64,000 nt of DNA, from assembly GCA_964016885.1 (NCBI GenBank), contig CAXHJY010001225.1, positions 1 to 64,000 of the forward strand, read 5' to 3'. The translations under genes and the position numbers were made by a program. Shown here in pieces: positions 3,933-55,250 of this stretch. Positions within the stretch are counted from its first letter, which is position 1; each line of letters begins with the position of its first letter. Under the pieces are notes generated by a model. It was not told where the DNA came from. It made no database searches and worked only from the letters and a program-made list of their open reading frames with translations. The stretch is from Eledone cirrhosa (taxonomy: Eukaryota).

Positions 3933-4024
3933 ACGAAGGAAATGTGGTAAGGAACCAGGTGGACCATAACGCACCAAAGTACTCAATACTTGAGGTAGTA
4001 GAGTGGGTAATAGGAACCAGTAAG

Positions 4025-4118
4025 ACCCCGACAGCTGAGCTCAAGCCGTTTCGACGGCTAATTCTGGACTAAATGAACATTTATCCTGGTATTTAAATAG
4101 CCGATCTTCTCAAGGGGT
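4025..4118 (-). ncRNA. Hammerhead ribozyme, U3-A8 variant (mirror copy)
   Basis: Reverse complement of 4294-4387 in the left arm. Confidence 0.7.
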
Positions 4119-4293
4119 AATTCCATATATGGTCAAAGTGATTGTCAAAAATCAGTAGTAATTCTGTGGTTGCAAATTAGTAGGGGAGATGGTGGCTAAA
4201 CCTGCCGCAGGTTTAGCCACCATCTCCCCTACTAATTTGCAACCACAGAATTACTACTGATTTTTGACAATCACTTTGACCATATATGGAATT

Positions 4294-4387
4294 ACCCCTT
4301 GAGAAGATCGGCTATTTAAATACCAGGATAAATGTTCATTTAGTCCAGAATTAGCCGTCGAAACGGCTTGAGCTCAGCTGTCGGGGT
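4294..4387 (+). ncRNA. Type I hammerhead ribozyme with U3-A8 core variant, family B
   Basis: acccc TTGAGAA gatcggcta...tagccgtc GAAA cggct-tgagctc-agctg TC ggggt. Stems I, II and III all close. GUC cleavage triplet at 4380-4382. Confidence 0.72.
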
Positions 4388-4398
4388 CTTACTGGTTC

Positions 4399-4457
<59 letters not shown>

Positions 4458-4656
4458 TATAAGAGGGTGTTAAAGTTTGCTTGAAGCATTGTGAAATGTG
4501 TAAAAATACGTATTTAAGAAAGCCACAACAATGCAAAGGGAAATCTCGAGGTAGGAAGTGAAATATAGATAGGAAAAACAGGTGAAAGTGAAAGTTGAGA
4601 GAGACAAAGATGAAAACAAAACAAAGGTAGAAGGGTTACCGTAGTAGAGATTTTAA

Positions 4657-5300: not shown

Positions 5301-7050
5301 TTAAATTAGCCATGTCAGCTCATTTCTCTCGGCCCGGTTGTTAAGTGGGGGTCTGAGGTTCTTAATAACAAGTGCTTCCTTTATCCTTAAGGATCCGATG
5401 CTGCGTTCAGTCGCTAGGACTGTGGCCAAGGGTCTACCCTGTGGGTTTCCGCATTTGAGGATATGTTTACGGAAGGAAGATGCGTTGGTGTTGATATGTT
5501 CCTTGATACGAACATGTAGGGGTCGGATGGTGCTACCTATGTAAAACTTGTTACATTTATCGCATTGAATCTTATATACGACATAGGTGCGTAGGCAATC
5601 TGCCCCCCGTATCGGGCAGTTGCTGAGGGAACAAGTCCTATCTGCCTCGTAGGGTTTGTTGGAGAGGCATCTTCGCAGCGAAGGTCCTGTGTGGGCCAAA
5701 TGTATGTCAAGTCCCTCCGTACGTATGGCCCTGCGGATGGCGTTCGTGGTACATTCACTCAGGTGGGGGATTTTAAAGAAGCACCTGCTAATATTAAGTT
5801 TTCTAGTGGGTGTCGGTCTACTGGGTCTGGGGTCTCTAATTCCGTTAATCAGTCGCTTGGGATAACCATTAGATCTGAGTAGATTACGGAATTGCGTGGT
5901 ATGGGTGAGACCACCCATCGGGTCGCTGCATCTGTTAGTGATCCGTGTCAGTTCATTTAGGACATAGCCTCTCTTAGCGTTGTTGGGGAGGGCTGAGTTA
6001 TAATGCACAAATAGGTCCTTGCACGCTGCTTTGCGGTAGAAAGTGGTGTTTATGTCTCCATGTTCCGAGATGTTGATACGGAAGTCGAGGAGGGCGAGTG
6101 ACCCGTCTTCCTCCGGGTGTTCGATGGTGAAATCGATGTGTTGGTCAGTATCGTTGAAGATTTGGTGAATTTCATTCGCCATCTCCCGGGAAGAAGTCAG
6201 TATCAGGATATCATCAACGTATCTGGAGTAGAAGGCGACGGCGTTGGGTTGGCAGGTATTGAGTGCCTTGCGCTCCAGGTGGTCCATGTACGAGATCGCA
6301 AGTATGCCGGACAGACTAGAGCCCATAGGTAGCCCAGAGATTTGTTTGTACGTGTGGCCAAGGAAATTGAAGAGTGCATTATCCACAACGAAGGAGAGGA
6401 GTTGGTGGATGTCCGTGTGTGTGAGTCCGAAGCAGTGTAGGTTAGATGCTCGGACTCGTTCGGTCAACAGGTCGACAGCTGGGGATGCTGGTACGGAGGT
6501 ATAAAGGGAGACCACATCAAGACTGAAGGCATAACCGTTGTCCTTTCTGGTGTTGGGCGCCAGATGGTGTAGTCGCTCCAAGACTTCCATTGAGCTGCAG
6601 ACGTGGGCTGGTAGTGTGTGTAGAATAGGTTTCAGTAGTGTGGAGAGCAGCCACGATATTTTATAGAGTGGGCCCTCCACGCTAGAGACAATGGGCCTGA
6701 TTTTCAAATCGGGTCCTTGTTTATGTGTTTTGACCAAGTGGTAGAAGGTGGGTAATTTGCTGTTTCGAGTCATTATGTTGTTTTTTACCTTCTTTGGCAG
6801 TTTTCGTTGGACACAGATGTTAGTCCATATGGTGTTAATGCCTTCCTCGATTAGAGTCGAGGAGGTCCCTGTGACTTTGGAGTAGAGGCTGTGGTCATTA
6901 AGATGTTGGAGAGCTAAGTTGTTGTAGGTCTCTCTCGAGATGACACAGAATTCTTTCCCCTTGTCAGAGGGAAGGTACACAAGGTTCCTGGATCTTAGGT
7001 TGGTGAGAGTATTAAATTGTGCATTGGTGAGGTTGCGTTTGTTGTGTGTG
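5301..7050 (-). CDS. Penelope RT + GIY-YIG endonuclease (start uncertain; N-terminus of the 866-aa ORF call is microsatellite)
   Basis: Uninterrupted RT and GIY-YIG motifs. Confidence 0.88.
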
Positions 7051-7080
7051 TGTGTGTGTTGGGAAAGGATGTTAGATATA

Positions 7081-7905
<825 letters not shown>

Positions 7906-8350
7906 GTAGGAGGTGAGTTTTATTGTAGTACAATAAAGCAATGCAGATATCGGATAAGAAGCACTCTACAGTTTGTGGGACTGGAGTATGCATAATATAA
8001 GATCAAAAGATGGTTAAAGGAGTTCCATATATTTTATTATTCGCATTTCAAAAACAAACATCATCATGCAATAATATTTGTGTTTTCATCAGATAAAATA
8101 GGAGAACATGATATGAAGGCTAAAAAACACTTGTGGATAGTGCAGTTTTAAATCAACATATGAATCTAAAACCACTTTTCATATGTTGATTTAAAACTGC
8201 ACTATCCACAAGTGTTTTTTAGCCTTCATATCATGTTCTCCTATTTTATCTGATGAAAACACAAATATTATTGCATGATAATGTTTGTTTTTGAAATGCG
8301 CATAATAAAATATATGGAACTCCTTTAACCATCTTTTGATCTAATATTAT
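7906..8350. mobile_element. Fold-back cassette family A copy 2 (HHRs at 8030-8100 minus and 8242-8312 plus)
   Basis: Appears identical by eye to 1791-2235 at an offset of 6115. Confidence 0.82.
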
Positions 8351-8987: not shown

Positions 8988-10363
8988 AACGCAACATGGC
9001 TTCCGCCCAGGAAGATGCTGCCTTACACAGCTGCTACATCACTACTACTGGGTGCTGAGACAACTACTAGACAGCTCACATGTAGACGTGATATATCCTG
9101 ACTTTGCGAAGGCCTTTGACAAGGTCGACCACGGAATGATATGTCACAAACTACACGGACTCGGCATAACTGGAAAAGTAGGTGAGTGGCTGCATGGCTT
9201 CCTAAGGGACAGAAGCCAGGCAGTCGCAGCAAATGGGGCCCTCTCGAGGGAAACACCGATAACAAATGGGGTGCCTCAGGGGACAGTCCTGGGACCACTA
9301 CTGTTTTTGGTGGCTCTCTCGGACATGCCCTCTGTGGTGCATGCAACAACATCCCTCACTAGCTATGCTGATGACACTAAGGTAGCACAGGCAATCAAAA
9401 ACCCGGCTGACGCTGCCCTCTAACAGCAGGATCTGGATGCCATGTACAGATGGGCGGAAGAAAACAACATGCAGTTTAATGCTGGCAAATTCCAAGCCCT
9501 ACAATACAAACCTGCAAACACAAACACAAATATAGCGGAACACAGCTACACAGGACCAGGAGGGACCGATATCCCCGTGTCAAAATCGATACGAGACCTG
9601 GGCATAGACATGAGCGATGATGCATCTTTTTCTTCACACATCATGAAGGTGGCGACAGCATGTAGACGATTCGCTGGCTGGATCTTGAGGACTTTCCTTA
9701 CAAGAGATCGAGACACCATGTTGACACTGTGGAGGACTTTTGTCCTGAGCCGCCTGGACTACTGCTCCCAGCTGTGGTCACCCCATAGTGTCAAACTAAC
9801 CACGGAGCTTGAGGCAATCCAGCAAAGCTACACCAAGAGGATTGCCAAGATGAGGGAGATAAGCTACTGGGAGAGGCTGAAGGAACTGAAACTCTACTCC
9901 TTGGAGCGAAGACGGGAGAGATACGCAGTGATCTACATGTGGAAAATCCTGGAGGGACTAGCACCAAACTTTGGCATTGGGAGCTGGACCAACCGTCGAA
10001 CAGGACGTCACTGTGTGGTGCCAAAGGTCCCGTCTTCCACATCTAGAATAAGGAGCAGGTATTGCAATAGCCTGGGATTCAAGGGCCCTCAACTCTTCAA
10101 CAGGCTGCCGAGGCATCTGCGAGACTTGCATGACGTGGAGGTGGATGTCTTTAAGAAACATCTCGACACCTTATTATCCAGGATCCCGGATGAGCCCACA
10201 GCAAGACACGAGGGAAACCTAAGGGCAGCAGCAACAAACTCCCTCCTACACCAGTGGCCAACCTATACAGGCTGGAGATAAAATGTGTAGCAACAAGGGC
10301 GGTGCCCCAGCATGGCCTCAGCCGGATGGCTGAAACAGTTAAAAGAAAAAAAAAGTAAAAGAA
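8988..10363 (+). mobile_element. CR1-group LINE, 5'-truncated, RT with an in-frame stop
   Basis: [33 protein letters not shown] and LDYCSQLWSP motifs. TAA at 9421-9423 splits the ORF. A-rich tail, with (TA)n on both flanks. Confidence 0.9.
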
Positions 10364-10371
10364 ATATATAC

Positions 10372-10414
<43 letters not shown>

Positions 10415-10422
10415 TCTATATA

Positions 10423-10506
<84 letters not shown>

Positions 10507-10567
10507 CATATATACATATATATATATATATACATATATACATATATATATATATATACATATATAC

Positions 10568-10696
<129 letters not shown>

Positions 10697-11013
10697 CATA
10701 TATATATAAATTGAAACAAAATGAAAACGAAATTTCATTTCTCACTCTTAGTATGGCACTTACTTAAATGTAAGTATGCATGTATACGTACATACATATA
10801 TGTATACAGACGTACAGTAGCATGCACATATATATATATATATATACACATATACATACATATGCATACAGGTACACATACATATATGCACGTATCAGTT
10901 TAGCGGCGCTTATTATAACGTCGCTTTGTTCGTTTGTAAACAAACTGAACAGCCTGAATTTATGCCATACGGCATATATACTTTCGAACGTTCAACTATC
11001 TGGCAGATGGGTA

Positions 11014-11058
11014 AACGGTGCTGATGATAGCTAACAAGCTTGAAACTAGTACATCGTT
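11014..11058 (+). ncRNA. Minimal type I hammerhead ribozyme, family C copy 1
   Basis: aacggtg CTGATGA t-agct-aaca-agct-t GAAA ctag TA catcgtt. Palindromic ACTAGT stem III. Cleavage after 11051. Confidence 0.88.
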
Positions 11059-11487
11059 CCTGTGTCAGTGTTGAACAAAAAGGTGACGTGGTTGCCTTAA
11101 CACCGTATGGCATAAATTCAGGCTGTCCAGTTTGTTTACAAACGAACAAAGCGACGTTATAATAAGCGCCGCTAAACTGATACGTGCATATATGTATGTG
11201 TACCTGTATGCATATGTATGTATATGTGTATATATATATATATATATGTGCATGCTACTGTACGTCTGTATACATATATGTATGTACGTATACATGCATA
11301 CTTACATTTAAGTAAGTGCCATACTAAGAGTGAGAAATGAAATTTCGTTTTCATTTTGTTTCAATTTATCGTTTTCGGTATGCCTGACCGATTTAACTCA
11401 CTCAATATGCAAATTAGGCTGCTCAGCCGTTAATTTTCATAAGGAAAGTATATACTTTCGAACGTTCAACTATCTGGCAGATGGGTA

Positions 11488-11532
11488 AACGGTGCTGATG
11501 ATAGCTAACAAGCTTGAAACTAGTACATCGTT
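11488..11532 (+). ncRNA. Minimal type I hammerhead ribozyme, family C copy 2
   Basis: Identical to 11014-11058. Cleavage after 11525. Confidence 0.88.
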
Positions 11533-11657
11533 CCTGTGTCAGTGTTGAACAAAAAGGTGACGTGGTTGCCTTAACACCGTATGGCATAAATTCAGGCTGT
11601 TCAGTTTGTTTACAAACGAACAAAGCGACGTTATAATAAGCGCCGCTAAACTGATAC

Positions 11658-11748
<91 letters not shown>

Positions 11749-11773
11749 TATATACACACATATATATATATAC

Positions 11774-11848
<75 letters not shown>

Positions 11849-11883
11849 TATATACATATATATATATATATACATTTATACAC

Positions 11884-11948
<65 letters not shown>

Positions 11949-12089
11949 TATATACATATACATATATATATATATATATAGTAATAACAATAAAATTGAA
12001 GACTAAAATCCAAAGAGGGCTCGATAAGGAAAATATATATCAAATATATAAGAACCGAAGAGCAAAAATTTATTAAAATAACAGATTAA

Positions 12090-12140
12090 AGTTTAAGCAA
12101 AGAATCGCTGCTTTCACCCTTAACGGGATCTTCTGAAACT
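12090..12140 (-). ncRNA. Hammerhead ribozyme (U4A variant) in the PLE2 3' pLTR
   Basis: agttt CAGAAGA t-ccc-gttaa-ggg-t GAAA gca-gcgattctt-tgc TT aaact, on the element's sense strand. Confidence 0.68.
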
Positions 12141-12933
12141 AACAAAGTCAATCTGTAAACGCATATTTCAAAAAACGTTGCAACCGGAGGAAGACAGGAA
12201 GACGATACTTTGGTTCATGGTGACGTTCGCTGGCAAAGAACGGGAAAAAACGAATAATACGTCATTAATAGGAGCGGTGAAAAACAATTACGCGCAAAGA
12301 CAGAACCACGTTTATGGTATAAAAGAGGTCGTAGACTAATGTTCTCTAAGTGGTGCATAGAGACGTTCTCTGGCAATGAACGAAAAAACGAAGATAATAA
12401 GTCATATGTGGAGCGTTGAGAACGTTGAGAAACAAATAAATACATACACGCAAAGAGATACTTACATACACAAGCATACGCAAAACCTTACCATAGGTAT
12501 ACAAAACCACGCACATATAAATATGTGTATGTGTGTATGCTTGTGTACAAATAAATAAATAATTCTATAAACGTATATAAGTAAATAAATACGTATATAA
12601 CAAGCGCACACACATACCTACAAATAAATACACGAAGGTTCGGAGACGTAAGTCAACTAAAACAAGAAGTACACATATACACACACCCACCATACGTACG
12701 AAACTGCATACTAACGCAGACGCAAAACTCCCATATACACATAACCGAACCCTAAATACCAGAATATGTAAAAATGATACGCCATAACAGTCAAATATAC
12801 GTACGAGAAGGTATACATACCTTCACAAAACATACGGGTAATATATACTTACCTATGCAAATAAGTAAAGGAATAAACAAAACATATACTTAGCTCCCAC
12901 ATCAAGACGTAAAATATCCACGTATAGATCGTG

Positions 12934-15085
12934 CTATCCGTTAGGGTATAACGTGGGGCTGTAATACAGGAAAGTTTTGTGCAATTTATGTTTACAAGCC
13001 GAAATTGCCTCAGATTTTTTGTTTAAGATGTGGTCTGTGGCGTAGAGTATTTCCAGGGCCTCAGCGGCGCAGAGGTCACATGGTCTTTTATTTCCGTTAT
13101 ACGATCTAGCCCTAGCTAGGATCTCCCAGTGTAACTTATATTGGGTGTGGTTGTCTTTTAGACTCCAGATATGAGCTGAAAGTGACGTCATATTCCTTCT
13201 TAGAGGGTAACGAAAAGAATGGGTATGCATGTAAAGAGGCTGCTTGAAACTATTGGCGATTACCCCTATGTAGGCCCTACGGGACGTGGGTGTTACAACC
13301 TTACATTTGTAGACAATGTTACTAGAGAGGCATTTCCCGGATAGGGGACAAACAGCCCGATTCCTACAATTACAGTTAGTACTAACTACAGGGTTGCACG
13401 TGTTCCTACGGCTAGGTAGTTTAGCTAAATTTGAAGCTGTGATGTTATGTGCAAGGTTAGGAGTCGTAGAGTAAGAAATTTTAATAGTGTTTCTATTAAA
13501 CATTTTACTATATTTATGTGTAGGGGGAAAATGCTTCGTAATAAGGGAAAGAAAGGTCTTAGCTAAAGGTGTGGCCACCTCCATATTATATAGTGGGTTA
13601 AACCAACAAATGCGACGGGATCTATTTCTTCTAGGTCTATTCTCGTACTCTGTATATGCTACCTTAACGACAAATCCACTTCGAGCAAGAGCTTCATTGT
13701 AATAAGTGGAATGGTCGTTGAAAATGCGCTCGTTGGTGGAAAGACGGGAAAGCCTCAACGAAACGTTTTTTACCAGGTTCTTGGTTATGCTGGCAGGATG
13801 GTTGGAATGCTTACTTATGTAATTAAGCGTATCGTTCGGCTTTCTATACGGGTAATACAACCCATTCAATAAATTGAGGGTAACGTCTAGGTAATTAACG
13901 ACCGAGAGATTGGCCTCAACCTGTATAGAGAGGTTGAAGCCTTTAAAGAAGGCTGTGAGTTCTTTCCTGAATCTGTCGCAAGCACGAGGTCCGCACTTAG
14001 TCCTGGTCAAAAGACCATCGTCACGGTACAAACCACCGCCCGTGTTGGGGAATTCGTCCTTGATAGAGAAAAGAAGGAAAAGACCAATAAGATCAGTAAC
14101 CTCCGCAGAGTCACTGGCGCCCATACTCACGTCGAATGGGGTACTATTGGATTTTTTAATCCAAATAGAGTCGTCGAAATTAATCACCGACTTTCGGGCA
14201 TTAAGGATGACATCAACTTCGAAATCCTTAACCACTGTGAGTGTTTTAGCGAAATTGATAGCTCTAAGGAGAAGTGGTAAAGTGATGGAGGAGTAGTAAT
14301 TGTTGATGTCGAATTGGATAAAACGGCAATGTTCCTTGTTACATATGCCGTTGAACCAATCAATCACCGCGAAAGAATTGTTCCACAGTGCGAGAGGGGC
14401 CAAACTTCTAATTTCAGGTATAATTCTATCAAGAATCTTTTTACTAAGTCTACCTAAATCGGACTTCGTAGGGTTAATAAGCCGAATAGAGGGGTTGTTC
14501 GGAAAATTGGATTTGTGATCCTTCAGGGTAAAGTGGGGAGAGATAGGGTCCAGAAGTTCGGTCGGGTCCAGGATGTTGAGATCAGATGTGATTTTAAACC
14601 CAGCATCGTTGATTTCATTGATGACACACCGATTAGTTTTACGGTAATCCTTAGTTACAGCATTATGTAGTAGTTGATGGTAAGTACTGCGCTCCACTTG
14701 ATATAGGTTGCCAGTTTTGTCGGAATGGACGTTCACGGCGTTAGAATCCTTAATAGAACGAATTCTATTCTTCAGGTCTTGCTGGAAGGAATTGCTCCTA
14801 TTCCGAAATTTGATACTCCGAATGAGTTCCAATACATCATTTTCGAAGGGTAGCAATGCTGGGTTCCACGGAGGCTTATTATAGGTTTTAAATCCAAATT
14901 TGTCCTGTTTGTTGTCTGCTTTTCGCGGATTATCGAAATAAATGGCACGCCAACGCAACCTTTTAATGAACGCGTCTGTTTTCTGTATCAGGAGTTTTAG
15001 GTATGTTTTCCTGCTTGGTACGGGTATGTTTTTGTAGAAATATTCAGATGTTGTTTCTGCATGATGAATATAAGTCAGTAGAGTG
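12934..15085 (-). CDS. Penelope RT + zinc-binding region + GIY-YIG (YRDD type; probably 'Hydra'-like clade)
   Basis: KNIPVPS, TLKDHK, RLINPTKSDLG, FIQFDI, FDVSMG, GLYRDDGL, CNCR..CPLSGKCL, IVYKC..YIG and CDLC..E motifs, with no stops. The ORF call upstream of ~15085 runs into the inverted pLTR. Confidence 0.88.
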
Positions 15086-15588
15086 CTCAACCGAAGGTAC
15101 CTATGGTAAGGTTTTGCGTATGCTTGTGTATGTACGTATCTGTTTGCGTGTATGTATTTATTTGTTTCTATTACTTCTGTATTGTATTTATTTACTTTGT
15201 TCTTAACTCTGTAGCGGAGATTCATTCGGTCTCCTAGTTAGAATGTTAGTCTACAACTTCTGCTATACCATTTACGTGGTTTTGTCTTTGTGCTATTATT
15301 CTCAACGCTCCACATATGACTTATTATCTTCGTTTTTTCGTTCATTGCCAGAGAACGTCTCTATGCACCACTTAGAGAACATTAGTCTACGACCTCTTTT
15401 ATACCATAAACGTGGTTCTGTCTTTGCGCGTAATTGTTTTTCACCGCTCCTATTAATGACGTATTATTCGTTTTTTCCCGTTCTTTGCCAGCGAACGTCA
15501 CCACGAACCAAAGTATCGTCTTCCTGTCTTCCTCCGGTTGCAACGTTTTTTGAAATATCCAGTTCTGCGTTTACAGATTGACTTTGTT

Positions 15589-15639
15589 AGTTTCAGAAGA
15601 TCCCGTTAAGGGTGAAAGCAGCGATTCTTTGCTTAAACT
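15589..15639 (+). ncRNA. Hammerhead ribozyme (U4A variant) in the PLE2 inverted pLTR
   Basis: Mirror of 12090-12140. Confidence 0.68.
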
Positions 15640-15659
15640 TTAATCTGTTATTTTAATAA

Positions 15660-15690
<31 letters not shown>

Positions 15691-21533: not shown

Positions 21534-21968
21534 CATGTGAGATTAGCACCCTTATAGTATGGAAATAAACTGTCTGAAGATCTAATTTTTTCCATTGGAA
21601 ATTCTCTGGATTTCCAATCTTTGGATTAGTGAAACCGTCGGTAACAGCAACAGAACAGGTGATCATTTAAATCGTTTTTTAATTTATTTAAAGGATTGTT
21701 TGATAATTGTTTGCTCAGCTCATTTTTATATATATATTATATATATATTTATATATATACATGTATATATATAAATATGTATACAAATATATTACACAGA
21801 GAGTAGTGTGTTACACATTGAGATGTGTGTAAACAATTATTACATGTGAGTTTAACCGATACTGTATGGAGAACAATAACTACAGGTTAGCAATTAAATA
21901 GAACAAAACCTAAGTCAGAATCAAATCTCTGAAGTAGAGTTTTAAATTACTAACCTTATAACTATAAT

Positions 21969-22044
21969 CTTGCTGATACGAATTTAGTTCGTTTCACCAC
22001 CGAAATGTGCAGTATAACAGCCCATAGGATCCTCAATCAGCAAG
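21969..22044 (-). ncRNA. Hammerhead ribozyme family D, C3U-altered mirror copy
   Basis: cttgctga TTGAGGA ... GAAA cgaactaaattcg TA tcagcaag. Confidence 0.6.
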
Positions 22045-22304
22045 TATGGGTACTGTCCACCACACATCTAGCCTAATGGATAGAGAGAAAGCTAATAACA
22101 TGCTGCCCAGAGTAGGGCGAAATCACGTGTTATATGCGTCAAATAACGACTCTCATGAATTGGGGAAAATGGTAGAGAGAGCAGGCCAATTCATGAGAGC
22201 CGTTATTTGACGCATATAACACGTGATTTCGTCCTACTCTGGGCAGCATGTTATTAGCTTTCTCTCTATCCATTAGGCTAGATGTTTGGTGAACAGTACC
22301 CATA

Positions 22305-22380
22305 CTTGCTGACTGAGGAACCTATGGGCTGTTATACTGCACATTTCGGTGGTGAAACGAACTAAATTCGTATCAGCAAG
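22305..22380 (+). ncRNA. Type I hammerhead ribozyme, family D
   Basis: cttgctga CTGAGGA acc...ggt GAAA cgaa-ctaaa-ttcg TA tcagcaag. 8-bp stem I and a fully closed stem III. Cleavage after 22372. Confidence 0.85.
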
Positions 22381-22628
22381 ACTATAGTTATAAGGTTAGT
22401 AATTTAAAACTCTACTTCAGAGATTTGATTCTGACTTAGGTTTTGTTCTATTTAATTGCTAACCTGTAGTTATTGTTCTCCATACAGTATCGGTTAAACT
22501 CACATGTAATAATGTTTTACACACATCTCACTGTGTAACACACTTCTCTCTGTGTAATATATTTGTATTTGAGCTCAGATGAAAATTCTCTGTTCTTCTT
22601 CGAGCTAGTATTATTATTATTACTGTAA

Positions 22629-43168: not shown

Positions 43169-43295
43169 AAAGTTATATTTAAATTGTTGGGTTACAACTA
43201 GTAAATATTTATAACTGATATAAAAGCACTCGACAAGTATTTGGAGTATATTTACGATATTAAATAAATGGAAACTATATTTATAAAACCATATT

Positions 43296-43361
43296 TATTT
43301 CATTATATATATTTCAGGGATATCATATTAACAATATGCTATGCCTTCCTCAGACAAAATA
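43296..43361 (-). ncRNA. Hammerhead ribozyme in the PLE3 inverted pLTR
   Basis: Mirror of 46865-46930, with stem II closing agg/cct. Confidence 0.8.
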
Positions 43362-43802
43362 CAATATAAACAGTTTTATAGATAAATAGATTCGACATAC
43401 CGTAACAACATCGACTTGTATTTGAAAGAGTTGAATTGGCAGTGAAAAAATTGTACACAGAGAGAAAGAAAGAGAGAAAAAAGGAAAGAAAGACAGAAAA
43501 CGAAGAAAAAGAAGAAAAAGAAGAAATACATGGAACAAAATAGAGAGATGGAAAGATAGATAAAGAGAAGAACTTCATGTAAAGAAGCAGAGAGAGATAT
43601 ATATATAGAGAGAGAGAGGAAATAGAGATAGATACATATATATAGAAAACTAGGTAGTGGGACGTCCGTTGAGTAAACGTATCAATGATATATTTATTTA
43701 TTTATTTATTTATTTATTTAGCTCTAGTATTAATGTAAGGGAGATATATGGAGAGAAACCAGCTGTTATATAGAGAGAAAAATTTAAAAAGCATCTTGTA
43801 TA

Positions 43803-45532
43803 ATGCACGAGTTGGAAATTGAGAACAGAACACAACCTTTCGTGCCCAGGAAACCGAAGATCAATATGAAAGATCACAAGAGGAATTTTGAAAATGACTT
43901 GCCAGTTAGATTGATCGCACCATCAAAATCGGACCTGGGCAAATTAAGCAAAAACATTCTTGACAGGGTGATACAGCAAATTAAGAACTTGGATTGTTTA
44001 TCTAACCTGAGCTTGTGGAAGGTAACTGGAGAGGTTGTTGAGTGGTTTAAGCAAATTAGATATAACAATAATAATAAGTTTATTCAACTTGATATAGCTA
44101 ACTATTATTCTTCTATTACCCCTAATCTACTAAATAAGGCACTAAATTACGCATTCAAACATACTGACCTAACTAGCAATGAAATGCATATTATATTATC
44201 GGCTAGGAAAACTTTGATAGAATTTAATGACCAACTATGGACCAGAGCAGATAGAGATAGCAATTTTGACATTACTATGGGATCATCCGACTCAGCTCAG
44301 GTAACTGACCTTGTGGGCTTATTTTTAATCAATTCGCTACATAGGAAAATACCTGGTACTACCGGAGGTTTATATAGAGATGACATGCTTTTACTTATTG
44401 ATAATAATAACTCTGAACTAAATAGAAAATGTAAACAAATTACACAATTTTTTAATTACTTTAATCTTAAAATAGAAATTGAGAACAACCATAGAATAGT
44501 CAATTTCCTAGATATAACATTAAATCTCAACACATGTCTTCACTATCCTTTTCACAAGTTGAATGAAAACTTAAACTATGTCAACTTTAACTCTAACCAC
44601 CCCAGATCTGTCAAAAACACTATAGTAAACTCTGTTCAAAAACGTATCTCTAGGATCTCGTCGAATAGAAAGATTTTCGACGAAAAAGCCCAATACTACA
44701 ATGAAACATTAGCTAGAGCAGGATATGCTGATAAGATTGTGTACATAGATAATGATAGACAAACTAAACAAAATAACAACTATTTTAATTACGGCAACAA
44801 CCTTAACAACTATAATAGAAAGCATTACAATAATTCCAAAGGCCAAAAAAGAAATAGAACTAGGAACATAATTTGGTTTGCCCCCCTTTCTCACTAAACA
44901 TTAAAACCCACATCGCTAAACTATTTTTTAAAGCTCTTGATAATCGCTTCCCTAGAACACATAGGTATCACTCAATTTTCAATAGACATACAATAAAATT
45001 AACCTACTCATCCACCAAAAATTTAGCACAAAATATTAATAGAATAAATAATAGGAACTTAAAACCTAGTGATAATAGCATAAATAATATACAAGTTAAC
45101 AAATGTAACTGTAGAGATAGATCTAAATGTCCGTTAAATAACAACTGCTTAGTTAAAAATATAGTATACAATTGTAATGTTAATACTGACTCTAATTCTT
45201 TTAACTACGTCGGTTCCACATCGACGGAATTTAAACTTCGCTATAATAACCACAAGAATTCTTTCACAGATCCAAGCAAAAAATCTTCAACGGCACTATC
45301 AGGCGTACTCTGGCAACTTAAGCTAGATAACGTTAGATATTCGACGGCTTGGAATATAGTCTCAAGAGGGATTCCTTTTAATTCATCCTCTGAGACATGT
45401 GACCTCTGCGCAGAGGAGATATTCTTTATACTAAAATCTAAAAATTCCCTTAATCTACGGACAAATTTATTCAGTTGCTGCAAACATAGATTAAACTCAA
45501 CGTTTAAATATAAATTTAAATTTAAAATGTAG
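43803..45532 (+). pseudogene. Penelope RT + GIY-YIG with one frameshift near 44885
   Basis: KDHK, PSKSDLG, FIQLDI, FDITMG and GLYRDD, then CNCR..CPL..CL, IVYNC..YVGST..FKLRYNNH after the frameshift at a C-run (IWFAPP/FS). Confidence 0.88.
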
Positions 45533-46864
45533 TATATTTAGTTTGATTTATAATTATATGGGAAACTAGCCGATAAATCTTTGATTTCTTCTTTTTATTC
45601 TTTTTATTTTTATTTTTATTTTTATTTAAATATTCTTCATGAAAAATTAAGCTACCCTAAAAGTTGATGCTCCAAATATTTCGAATAAACGTTACACTAG
45701 ATAAACTTCTATATTAAATATAAGAACACATGTAGACCAAATGGGCATCCTAAACTTTTTGAAATGATCTTTGCTAGATGCGATTTGATAGATAATTTTT
45801 GGCTTTATCTGTTTTTCGACTCTGATGCTTATAATGAACTTGGCAATATATTGTCAATTAATTTTGAAGGGTTGATCTTTGTGGTTTATTTTTATTTTTA
45901 TTATTGTAGTATTTTCTAATATTTTTATTTTAATATTTTTAATATGTAATATTTTTAATATGTAATATTCTTTCGTAATATTTTTTAGTTTTCTATTTTA
46001 TTATTACTTATTATTATTATTGTTATTTTTTAGTTTTGTTTCTGATATATATTTTTATTAGTATATTGAAATCTGCTCTCTATTTCTGCTTGATAGATAA
46101 TCTTGTAGAGTAAAGACAGGAATAGTACTAATATTGACTCTATATATATTTGTGTGTATATATATACACATATATGTATACTTAAATATTTATACCACAA
46201 TGAGAATGTTTTCCGTGAACTTAGGGTTTGCAGAGTTGATCATGTAAATTCACATAGATGTTTGTAGTTATCACATAAACATATGAATTTTTTAAAAAAA
46301 CTAAACATAAGATCATTAATTTTCACACATATTGGATACATGTCTCATTCAGGAATACTGATATTTACAATATAGTGGCTGGTTTTTATACATACTAATA
46401 CCTCTACATTAAAACATAGGGTTTTTACGCCTCGCCTATGTCTGGTTATTTTTAAATTTTTCTCTATATATAACAGCTGGTTTCTCTCCATATATCTCCC
46501 TTACATTAATACTAGAGCTAAATAAATAAATAAATAAATAAATGTATCATTGATACGTTTACTCAACGGACATCCCACTACCTAGTTTTCTATATATATG
46601 TATCTATCTCTATTTCCTCTCTCTCTCTATATATATATCTCTCTCTGTTTCTTTACATGGAGTTCTTCTCTTTATCTATCTTTCCATCTCTCTATTTTGT
46701 TCCATGCATTTCTTCTTTTTCTTCGTTTACTGTCTTTCTTTCCTTTTTTCTCTCTTTCTTTCTCTCTGTGTACAATTTTTTCACTGCCAATTCAACTCTT
46801 TCAAATACAAGTCGATGTTGTTACGGTATGTCGAATCTATTTATCTATAAAACTGTTTATATTG

Positions 46865-46930
46865 TATTTTGTCTGAGGAAGGCATAGCATATTGTTAATA
46901 TGATATCCGTGAAATATATATAATGAAATA
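46865..46930 (+). ncRNA. Type I hammerhead ribozyme in the PLE3 3' pLTR
   Basis: tattttgt CTGAGGA aggcatagcatattgttaatatgatatccgt GAAA tatata TA atgaaata. Palindromic stem III. Confidence 0.8.
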
Positions 46931-46967
46931 AATATGGTTTTATAAATATAGTTTCCATTTATTTAAT

Positions 46968-47029
<62 letters not shown>

Positions 47030-47656: not shown

Positions 47657-48132
47657 TATTGTTATACTTTGGGAGGGTCATGTTGCCAATAAGAAACACA
47701 CGCACCAGTTGCTTTCACTTCAATTTATTATATATTTATAAATTTATAAATTTATAAATCTATAAATTTCTGGTTGGTTGGTTGGTTCCACAACCAGATA
47801 GTTGTTTATATATAGTCATAGTTCTTTCGTCACACACTCTGTGACCTCTTCAGTGACTGGGGATTCCTTTCTTTGTTTCTGTGCCTCTCCTTTGTTCTGT
47901 CCTACACAGAGTGTGTGACGAAAGAACTATGACTATATATAAACAACTATCTGGTTGTGGAACCAACCAACCAACCAGAAACTTATAGATTTATAAATTT
48001 ATAAATTTATAAATATATAATAAATTGAAGTGAAAGCAACTGGTGCGTGTGTTTCTTATTGGCAACATGACCCTCCCAAATATAACAATACCGGTTTCAA
48101 CACACGATTTCAGATAAAGAATCTTGCTAAAC
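47657..48132. mobile_element. Fold-back cassette family F
   Basis: Arms 47657-47843 / 47905-48090, with (TA)n flanks. A short related piece lies at ~54786-54876. Confidence 0.8.
47814..47858 (-). ncRNA. Minimal type I hammerhead ribozyme, family F
   Basis: agtca CTGAAGA g-gtcaca-gagtg-tgtgac GAAA gaac TA tgact. Confidence 0.78.
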
Positions 48133-55050: not shown

Positions 55051-55250
55051 ATAATATAAGATCAAAAGATGGTTAAAAGAGTTCCAAGTATTTTATTATG
55101 CGCATTTCAAAAACAAATATCATCCTGGGATGATATCTGCGTTTTCATCAGATAAAATAGGGAAACATGACATGAAGCTTAAAAAACACTTGTGAATAGT
55201 AAAGTTTTAAATCAACATTGCTTTATTGTGCGACAATAAAACTCACCTCC

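Follow-up and report, generated by a model that had tools for sequence, protein, structure and literature searches.

Two identical hammerhead motifs lie 474 nt apart on the forward strand of Eledone cirrhosa contig CAXHJY010001225.1 (assembly GCA_964016885.1), of which positions 1 to 64,000 were analysed here as the window. They raise the question of whether the locus is a retrozyme, from which a small RNA able to circularise would be excised, or a piece of a Penelope-like retrotransposon (PLE). The best explanation, in our opinion, is that the locus is a truncated copy of a protein-free tandem family, likely a non-LTR retrozyme that borrows the RT and endonuclease of PLEs; we assign this reading a probability of about 0.75. 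That the family is non-autonomous and PLE-mobilised is very probable. Because its insertions bear the marks of Penelope-like retrotransposons, it is likely to be a small parasitic retroelement of the retrozyme kind.

Layout of the locus

Both hammerheads are on the + strand, each with a CTGATGA core (at 11021 and 11495) followed by stem II, GAAA and ACTAGT. H17 falls at 11051 and 11525, after which cleavage is predicted, and the spacing of 474 nt and the cut positions given in a preliminary description of the locus are thus confirmed. The sequence 10975-11193 recurs directly at 11449-11667 with one mismatch (11127). We define the unit as 10975-11448 (+ strand, 36% GC) and number its positions 1-474. 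The locus then reads, in order, as an inverted arm (unit 129-395), two bases, a full unit (1-474) and a partial unit (1-219), with TA-rich microsatellite all round; the left flank (10364-10705) is the (TA)n-rich target microsatellite, and the right flank (11668-11981) is likewise (TA)n-rich. The inverted arm in front, 267 bp long as described before, occupies 10706-10972 on the - strand and, apart from one mismatch, equals 11103-11369 in reverse complement. It is 5'-truncated and carries the "long" 3' end, with a 59-nt tail fused to (TA)n. The two junction bases (10973-10974), at which the arms meet head to head, match neither arm, and this junction is single-copy in the assembly.

Within the full unit, hammerhead 1 with its extended helix I spans 10990-11076. 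The predicted cut-to-cut monomer would extend from 11052 to 11525 on the + strand, and folding predicts that its ends pair with one another. Variation in unit length resides in a TA-rich, self-complementary hairpin at 11188-11310 (82-224 nt in other copies), the last base of which, unit 336, is the "short" 3' end. It is followed by the 59-nt tail that separates the two fixed 3' ends (11311-11369, unit 337-395) and by a segment past the long end (11370-11448), which contains ATGCAAAT (11407) and a 22-nt motif. The partial second unit (11449-11667) includes hammerhead 2, and its 3' end is lost in (TA)n.

No sense ATG ORF longer than 60 aa is present in the unit, in agreement with the earlier statement that no ORF lies between the hammerheads; when the unit is treated as a circle, its four longest frames all lie on the antisense strand (76 and 60 aa). 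No promoter was identified for the unit. Its octamer, which differs in some copies, was considered as an snRNA-type promoter on the model of newt satellite 2. Read-through transcription might come from the 3' part of a non-LTR retrotransposon RT at 8989-10340 (+), which has an A-rich run at its end and abuts the left TA tract. For a read-through RNA of the locus, folding predicts a long duplex between the inverted arm and 267 nt of the monomer, in which the cut product would remain. Arm-free arrays elsewhere are, as far as predicted folding goes, better candidates for the RNA source than the locus in the window.

Other PLE-type insertions occur in the window. A hairpin insertion of another family at 4015-4461 has a hammerhead-like motif with a U3-A8 core (TTGAGAA...GAAA), read by eye; a core of this kind is described for Cercyon (PMC4209133), and the family is frequent near other PLE insertions. 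Inverted-arm insertions at 1794-2232, 7909-8347 and 55054-55218 belong to a further hammerhead family with the palindrome ATGCGCAT and a long helix II, the first two being 100% identical over 439 nt, possibly through assembly duplication. More PLE-type inverted insertions are found at 21781-22568, 43257-46969 and 47657-48090, a hammerhead with a full helix III at 22313, and a second Hydra-like ORF, split by a frameshift, at 43788-45532. An RT and GIY-YIG ORF of another PLE clade (DKG motif) lies at 5304-7070 (-), its 5' end cut by TA repeats. It should be noted that TA repeats overwhelmed the scans of the window for repeats and Rfam families, and that no hammerhead appears among the 150 of 287 Rfam matches listed for the whole window.

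The family and the ends of its insertions

The 3.0-Gb genome contains 10,391 exact copies of the 36-nt ribozyme and none of its reversed control, so the motif pair is not a product of chance. A 17-nt marker of an older subfamily has 5,371 copies against 5 for its control. The family is dispersed, with matches on many contigs, and comprises a young subfamily with units of about 454-540 nt, which vary in the internal TA hairpin, and two older subfamilies with units of about 393-427 nt. The sample studied here consists of 180 loci (127 young, 29 and 24 old) with 516 motifs, overlapping fetches having been dropped before counting. It is a non-random choice from thousands, made up of top hits, the first-listed matches on one contig (C1) and hits to long arrays and rare variants. 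Unit sequence was also seen in runs with other organism codes (X4, X5 and X6), in X4 and X5 as one low-depth contig spanning the unit junction.

The sampled loci contain ORF-free head-to-tail arrays with a hammerhead in each unit and no LTR arrangement. One locus, L191, has 15+4 ribozymes, another, L233, has 11+4 units, and a third, L286, has at least 21 ribozymes in one stretch. The retrozyme-like, ORF-free tandem unit proposed from the window is therefore borne out, and the multimeric arrays without PLE ORFs that the preliminary description suggested looking for in the genome do exist.

Insertions have two fixed 3' ends, 59 nt apart and fused to (TA)n. Among the 127 young loci, 95 ends lie at or just before unit 395 (86 then run into TA repeats) and 63 at unit 336 (59 then run into TA repeats); TA repeats adjoin 145 of the 158 ends. 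Where both ends of a two-armed insertion are resolved, 41 of 43 insertions have one end of each kind, against about 48% expected at random, and the other two have two long ends. Partial tandems with inverted, 5'-truncated, head-to-head arms are found across the loci. Features described for PLEs include partial tandems, truncated copies in inverted orientation, a tail that is often confined to one end and, in the case of Hydra, (TA)n targets (PMC8557442). For the anole PLE Poseidon PAc, in vitro work shows that the RT starts at two internal sites which bound the tail, that both strands of an AT-rich target are cut, and that the enzyme mainly uses uncut RNA; PAc hammerhead mutants insert normally, and the ribozyme requires protein (PMC11167929). 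We infer that a PLE enzyme acting in trans starts reverse transcription at unit 336 and at unit 395. The insertion ends strongly indicate mobilisation by PLE machinery, and to that extent the earlier proposal of PLE RT involvement stands.

The same two-end rule shows how the window locus departs from the family. Its right arm, 5'-truncated and 1.46 units long, fades into (TA)n at unit 219 short of the family's normal end, which the rule predicts at unit 336, so that about 117 nt have been lost, to the microsatellite or in assembly. Taken at first for the most complete unit in the window, the locus is one truncated copy of the family.

The following course of events would account for these insertions. 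Arrays would be transcribed into multi-unit RNA, and a PLE protein would nick both strands of a (TA)n target. Reverse transcription would start inside the unit, at 336 for one strand and at 395 for the other; each cDNA would run backwards through any number of units, across ribozyme sites, to a random stop, and the two cDNA products would be joined head to head. At least some templates would be multi-unit RNAs with differing units. The hammerheads would likely cut as dimers via ACUAGU, and part of the RNA would probably end up as monomers and circles, as it does in axolotl, coral and mussel. The insertions can, however, be explained without a monomer circle.

The template RNA and the role of the hammerhead

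In the preliminary description, cleavage would yield a 474-nt RNA able to circularise and to serve as a template for PLE RT; on this model, the arrays would be written by PLE RT rolling round the monomer circle. None of 105 scored 5' ends (78 loci; ends inside the TA hairpin were excluded) falls within 3 nt of the cut, where 2.1 would be expected from a uniform distribution, and 175 segments cross the cut site; a cut linear monomer was thus not the usual template, which leaves a circle or an uncut multimer. Some arrays are uniform over up to 15 units, and many young ones perfectly so (L233, L236, L241, L243 and L290 among them), with a median of 1 substitution between units within arrays against 15 between loci. 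This uniformity fits a monomer circle and a multi-unit template alike. In a nearest-neighbour test, which is weak, 24 of 73 units were closest to a unit of their own array, with 25 ties. The predicted pairing of the monomer ends is also in keeping with a circle, as are the circles documented in other animal retrozymes (PMC7229834).

Rare variants on opposite arms speak against the monomer circle as the sole template. Both arms of L191 contain two rare features, a variant of stem II (20 copies in the genome) and a short hairpin (17 copies); one arm has the pair twice and the other once, always in the same order. Both arms of L246, which end at 336 and 395, respectively, show hairpin 102, a variant ribozyme (the 20-copy variant), hairpin 110 and a normal ribozyme. 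Such ordered variants are impossible from one monomer circle. In L289, two units (A and B) that are 13 substitutions apart alternate across nine units, and the opposite arm has three of the six B-specific variants within its span, which likewise cannot derive from a single monomer circle. As assembled, variant order is thus conserved between arms at two of the three loci and in part at L289, and the sharing of rare variants implies that the templates at these loci were multi-unit RNAs. The alternation, seen in L293 as in L289, could come from multimeric circles, DNA-level duplication or assembly; the A/B pair of L289 was not found elsewhere among 16 loci of the same subfamily. Variant sharing between arms is harder to explain by duplication or assembly than alternation is, although it, too, rests on assembled sequence. 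Moreover, uncut RNA is the substrate of the sole PLE tested in vitro (PMC11167929).

Of the proposal that a 474-nt circle templates PLE RT, then, the absence of 5' ends at the cut is in favour, and the rare variants shared by both arms are not. We consider the scheme as a whole unlikely, and doubt that the monomer circle was the main template. By analogy with other animals, the odds that circles are made in vivo are slightly better than even. A wider proposal, that PLE RT writes whole multi-kilobase arrays in one event by rolling round hammerhead-made circles, with dimers and higher multimers among them besides monomers, is less likely than not. If it were true, such circles would have left their footprints in the strict A/B alternation of L289 and L293 and in the longer repeated blocks, and the circular intermediate that has been proposed for PLEs since 2014 would have direct genomic evidence in this family.

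The preferred reading, that PLE machinery copies multi-unit RNAs, also takes the hammerheads as likely to cut. They might instead be kept as a fold for protein binding or rare protein-assisted cutting, with little role in mobility. The motif has a helix I of 6 bp followed by a 3-nt bulge and about 17 further pairs, a helix II of 4 bp and a 2-bp helix III at the palindrome ACUAGU; by the definitions of PMC4209133 this is the canonical metazoan type I layout, and the label "minimal", applied to it before, does not fit. Rfam Hammerhead_HH9 scores 18.5 bits on a 216-nt stretch (gathering score 52; E 0.031). Conservation was scored on the older subfamilies, and motif-selected loci were dropped, since selection by motif makes the test circular. 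In 58 motifs (36 loci, mostly of older subfamilies), positions 10.1/11.1, which in the window hammerheads form a U-U mismatch rather than G-C, are unpaired throughout (U-U 28, C-A 26, C-C 4). This points to an inactive fold, as does the non-catalytic minimum free energy (MFE) fold of the monomer. The PAc hammerhead, being protein-dependent and dispensable for insertion in vitro (PMC11167929), and the low activity of PLE hammerheads (PMC4209133) point the same way.

On the other side, the core letters are conserved in the same 58 motifs, with changes there scattered as singletons or pairs, while N7, H17 and loop II differ by subfamily, and U10.1-U11.1 is a natural variant and the best-tolerated mismatch (PMC3088659). 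The dimeric catalytic fold, at -21.0 kcal/mol, is close to the dimer MFE of -21.9 kcal/mol. In 22 distinct copies from the three subfamilies, 98% of cells pair in 29 named pairs, and stem pairing thus appears to be maintained across subfamilies. Changes on both sides affect 3 of the 29 pairs, a count that 111 of 500 shuffles reach; covariation is higher than in any of the 500 shuffles. The copies are related, however, and these sequences also served to draw the structure. Two small hairpins 3' of the ribozyme (11147-11175 and 11083-11097) likewise keep their pairing across subfamilies while their stem letters change, and their loop ATAATA is constant. The folding z-score of the monomer, -7.8, probably owes much to the TA hairpin and was left out of account. 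As far as folding models can tell, the ribozyme is probably active as a dimer, and a fold kept for protein binding or rare assisted cutting, with little role in mobility, is rather improbable.

Array growth at the DNA level, a scenario discussed in bioRxiv 10.64898/2026.07.22.740005, would confine retrotransposition to the seeding of single units, which unequal crossing-over would then multiply as in a minisatellite. It could explain the repeated blocks of period 2, 3 and 6 within single arms (L289, L293, L130, L191 and L284), which could be DNA-level duplications or assembly errors, and the six perfect alternating units of L289, where the last three units of the array are off by 2-5 changes. 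It does not accord with arms that are often both multimeric and have complementary PLE ends, nor with variants that recur on the opposite arm but not in mirror register, and we regard it as improbable. Least probable by far is an origin of the unit as an ordinary pLTR remnant left by an autonomous PLE: its end anatomy is PLE-like and PLE-ORF sequence is close by in 35 of 180 loci, but the unit is the terminal repeat of a complete PLE ORF in none of the 180, unit ends pass straight into the next unit in all three subfamilies, and of the 8 loci with a same-strand ORF fragment at most 1.5 kb upstream, 7 have TA-type repeats in between and L091 has a cut-off endonuclease fragment fused mid-codon-run to the middle of the unit, so that the sample already contradicts this reading. 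Searching with a degenerate pattern for the C-terminus of a PLE adjoining the unit gave 0 matches, and tblastn of four PLE proteins of the window and 10 of 120 listed relatives against the 180 loci revealed no pLTR arrangement. Among the rows listed for loose ends in public contigs, there were subfamily variants and flanks and no recurring ORF junction.

The helper question and known systems

If the unit is moved in trans, the nearest candidate for the source of RT and endonuclease is the neighbour at 11981-15662 (-), after the inverted arm. It is a separate element, and its open frame (12937-15237, about 700 aa) is not the unit's own ORF. This frame contains the motifs RWR95, DKT173, YRDD404 and CNCRNRAVC622 (CxCx5C) and a C-terminal YIG656, and the Hydra clade is described as having RWK-like, DKT and CxCx5C motifs, a C-terminal GIY-YIG and a (TA)n target (PMC8557442). 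By its motifs and TA-repeat ends, rather than by a tree, the neighbour is assigned to the Hydra-clade PLEs; Naiad and then Neptune were considered and ruled out by the ORF motifs. Relatives of about 700 aa cover 97% of the ORF, which Pfam did not recognise. A 34-nt piece of the neighbour's end has 18,432 exact copies, and its family, too, ends on TA repeats at two points, separated by about 90 nt. In most fetched copies the hammerhead-like motif of the neighbour is CAGAAGA (U4 -> A), with U-U at 10.1/11.1. The family is very successful, and its ribozyme core is probably dead.

The sole sequence link between the unit and a PLE is the 22-nt motif (11436-11457), which resembles a motif of the Hydra 3' UTR (12833-12862) about 75 nt past the Hydra stop codon. 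The match was equalled in 0 of 200 shuffles, in one of 16 comparisons; BLAST found no match between the unit and the neighbour's family. In one subfamily the motif reads AAGGTAAGT, which has the form of a 5' splice site (AAG/GTAAGT). The chance that the Hydra clade is the helper seems to us not quite even, and no autonomous parent or helper element was identified in the 180-locus sample. Head-to-head junctions of the unit with other PLE families were seen with Hydra at L020:683-1126 and with the 4015-4461 family at L052:2175-2280 and L105:4520-4650. They were rejected as proof of a helper, as two families are involved and L020 and L052 have tails on both arms. L072 is a tandem fusion of two other families.

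A literature search found no description of the family, or of tail-type ends on retrozymes; Repbase, Dfam and the supplements of PMC8557442 and PMC7229834 were outside its scope, and the family may already be catalogued somewhere. With the minimal hammerheads of PLEs (PMC4209133) the unit's motif shares a type I core and the predicted action as a dimer. It differs from the minimal hammerheads, which have a helix II of 7-8 bp, a helix I of 4-5 bp, an absent or minimal helix III and G10.1-C11.1, whereas the unit has a helix II of 4 bp, a helix I of 6 bp with extension, a helix III, and U-U, C-A or C-C at 10.1/11.1. With EN+ PLEs (the Hydra clade, PMC8557442; Poseidon PAc, PMC11167929) the family shares partial tandems, an inverted 5'-truncated copy, a one-end tail, (TA)n targets and a hammerhead in the repeat. 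Unlike them, it has no RT-endonuclease ORF, its ends lie 259 and 318 nt past the cut, and its tail measures 59 nt against 30-40 nt (about 90 nt in the neighbouring Hydra family). Chlamys elements such as MRC1 (PMC8557442) are likewise ORF-less PLE dependants with multicopy head-to-tail insertions; they resemble their autonomous partner at the 3' end and mostly lack hammerheads, whereas no such 3' similarity was found for the unit.

The closest likeness is to the metazoan non-LTR retrozymes, which were defined, with PLEs named as likely helpers, by Cervera and de la Pena (2020, PMC7229834), who showed circles in coral, mussel and axolotl, and which Li, Clavereau and Pollet (bioRxiv 10.64898/2026.07.22.740005) linked to pLTRs; of the Xenopus dimers in the latter preprint, 1/9 was cleaved in vitro and 8/9 were not. 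Shared features are tandem units (short, low in GC, free of ORFs and each with a type I hammerhead), thousands of copies, arrays from dimers to long multimers and co-occurrence with PLEs, and the short palindromic helix III is like that of amphibian retrozyme motifs. The unit length of 474 nt compares with 150-450 nt in the 2020 paper and 51-972 nt in the preprint. The family differs in the U-U at 10.1/11.1, in the internal TA hairpin and in that no parent pLTR was found; the two fixed ends, the tail rule and the head-to-head arms are features unreported for retrozymes in the text of these two sources. By every sequence-level criterion for non-LTR retrozymes, the family, known here from DNA sequence alone, belongs with them, and it would add to the animal non-LTR retrozymes as one likely mobilised by PLE enzymes.

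The retrozyme concept itself is already published in these two sources; the family is of a known kind, and what it contributes is evidence on mechanism rather than a new class. As far as these sources go, support for retrozymes moved by PLEs via circular RNAs consists of co-occurrence and pLTR similarity. The present family shows a mechanical signature, namely two fixed start sites, one tail per insertion, (TA)n targeting and an ORF-free unit, and it suggests that some templates were multi-unit, so that a monomer circle was not the sole template. The choice between a circle and an uncut multimer becomes testable in this family, since its copies number more than 10,000, its young arrays are near-identical and its variants serve as built-in barcodes; it constitutes a large natural record of how retrozyme arrays are written.
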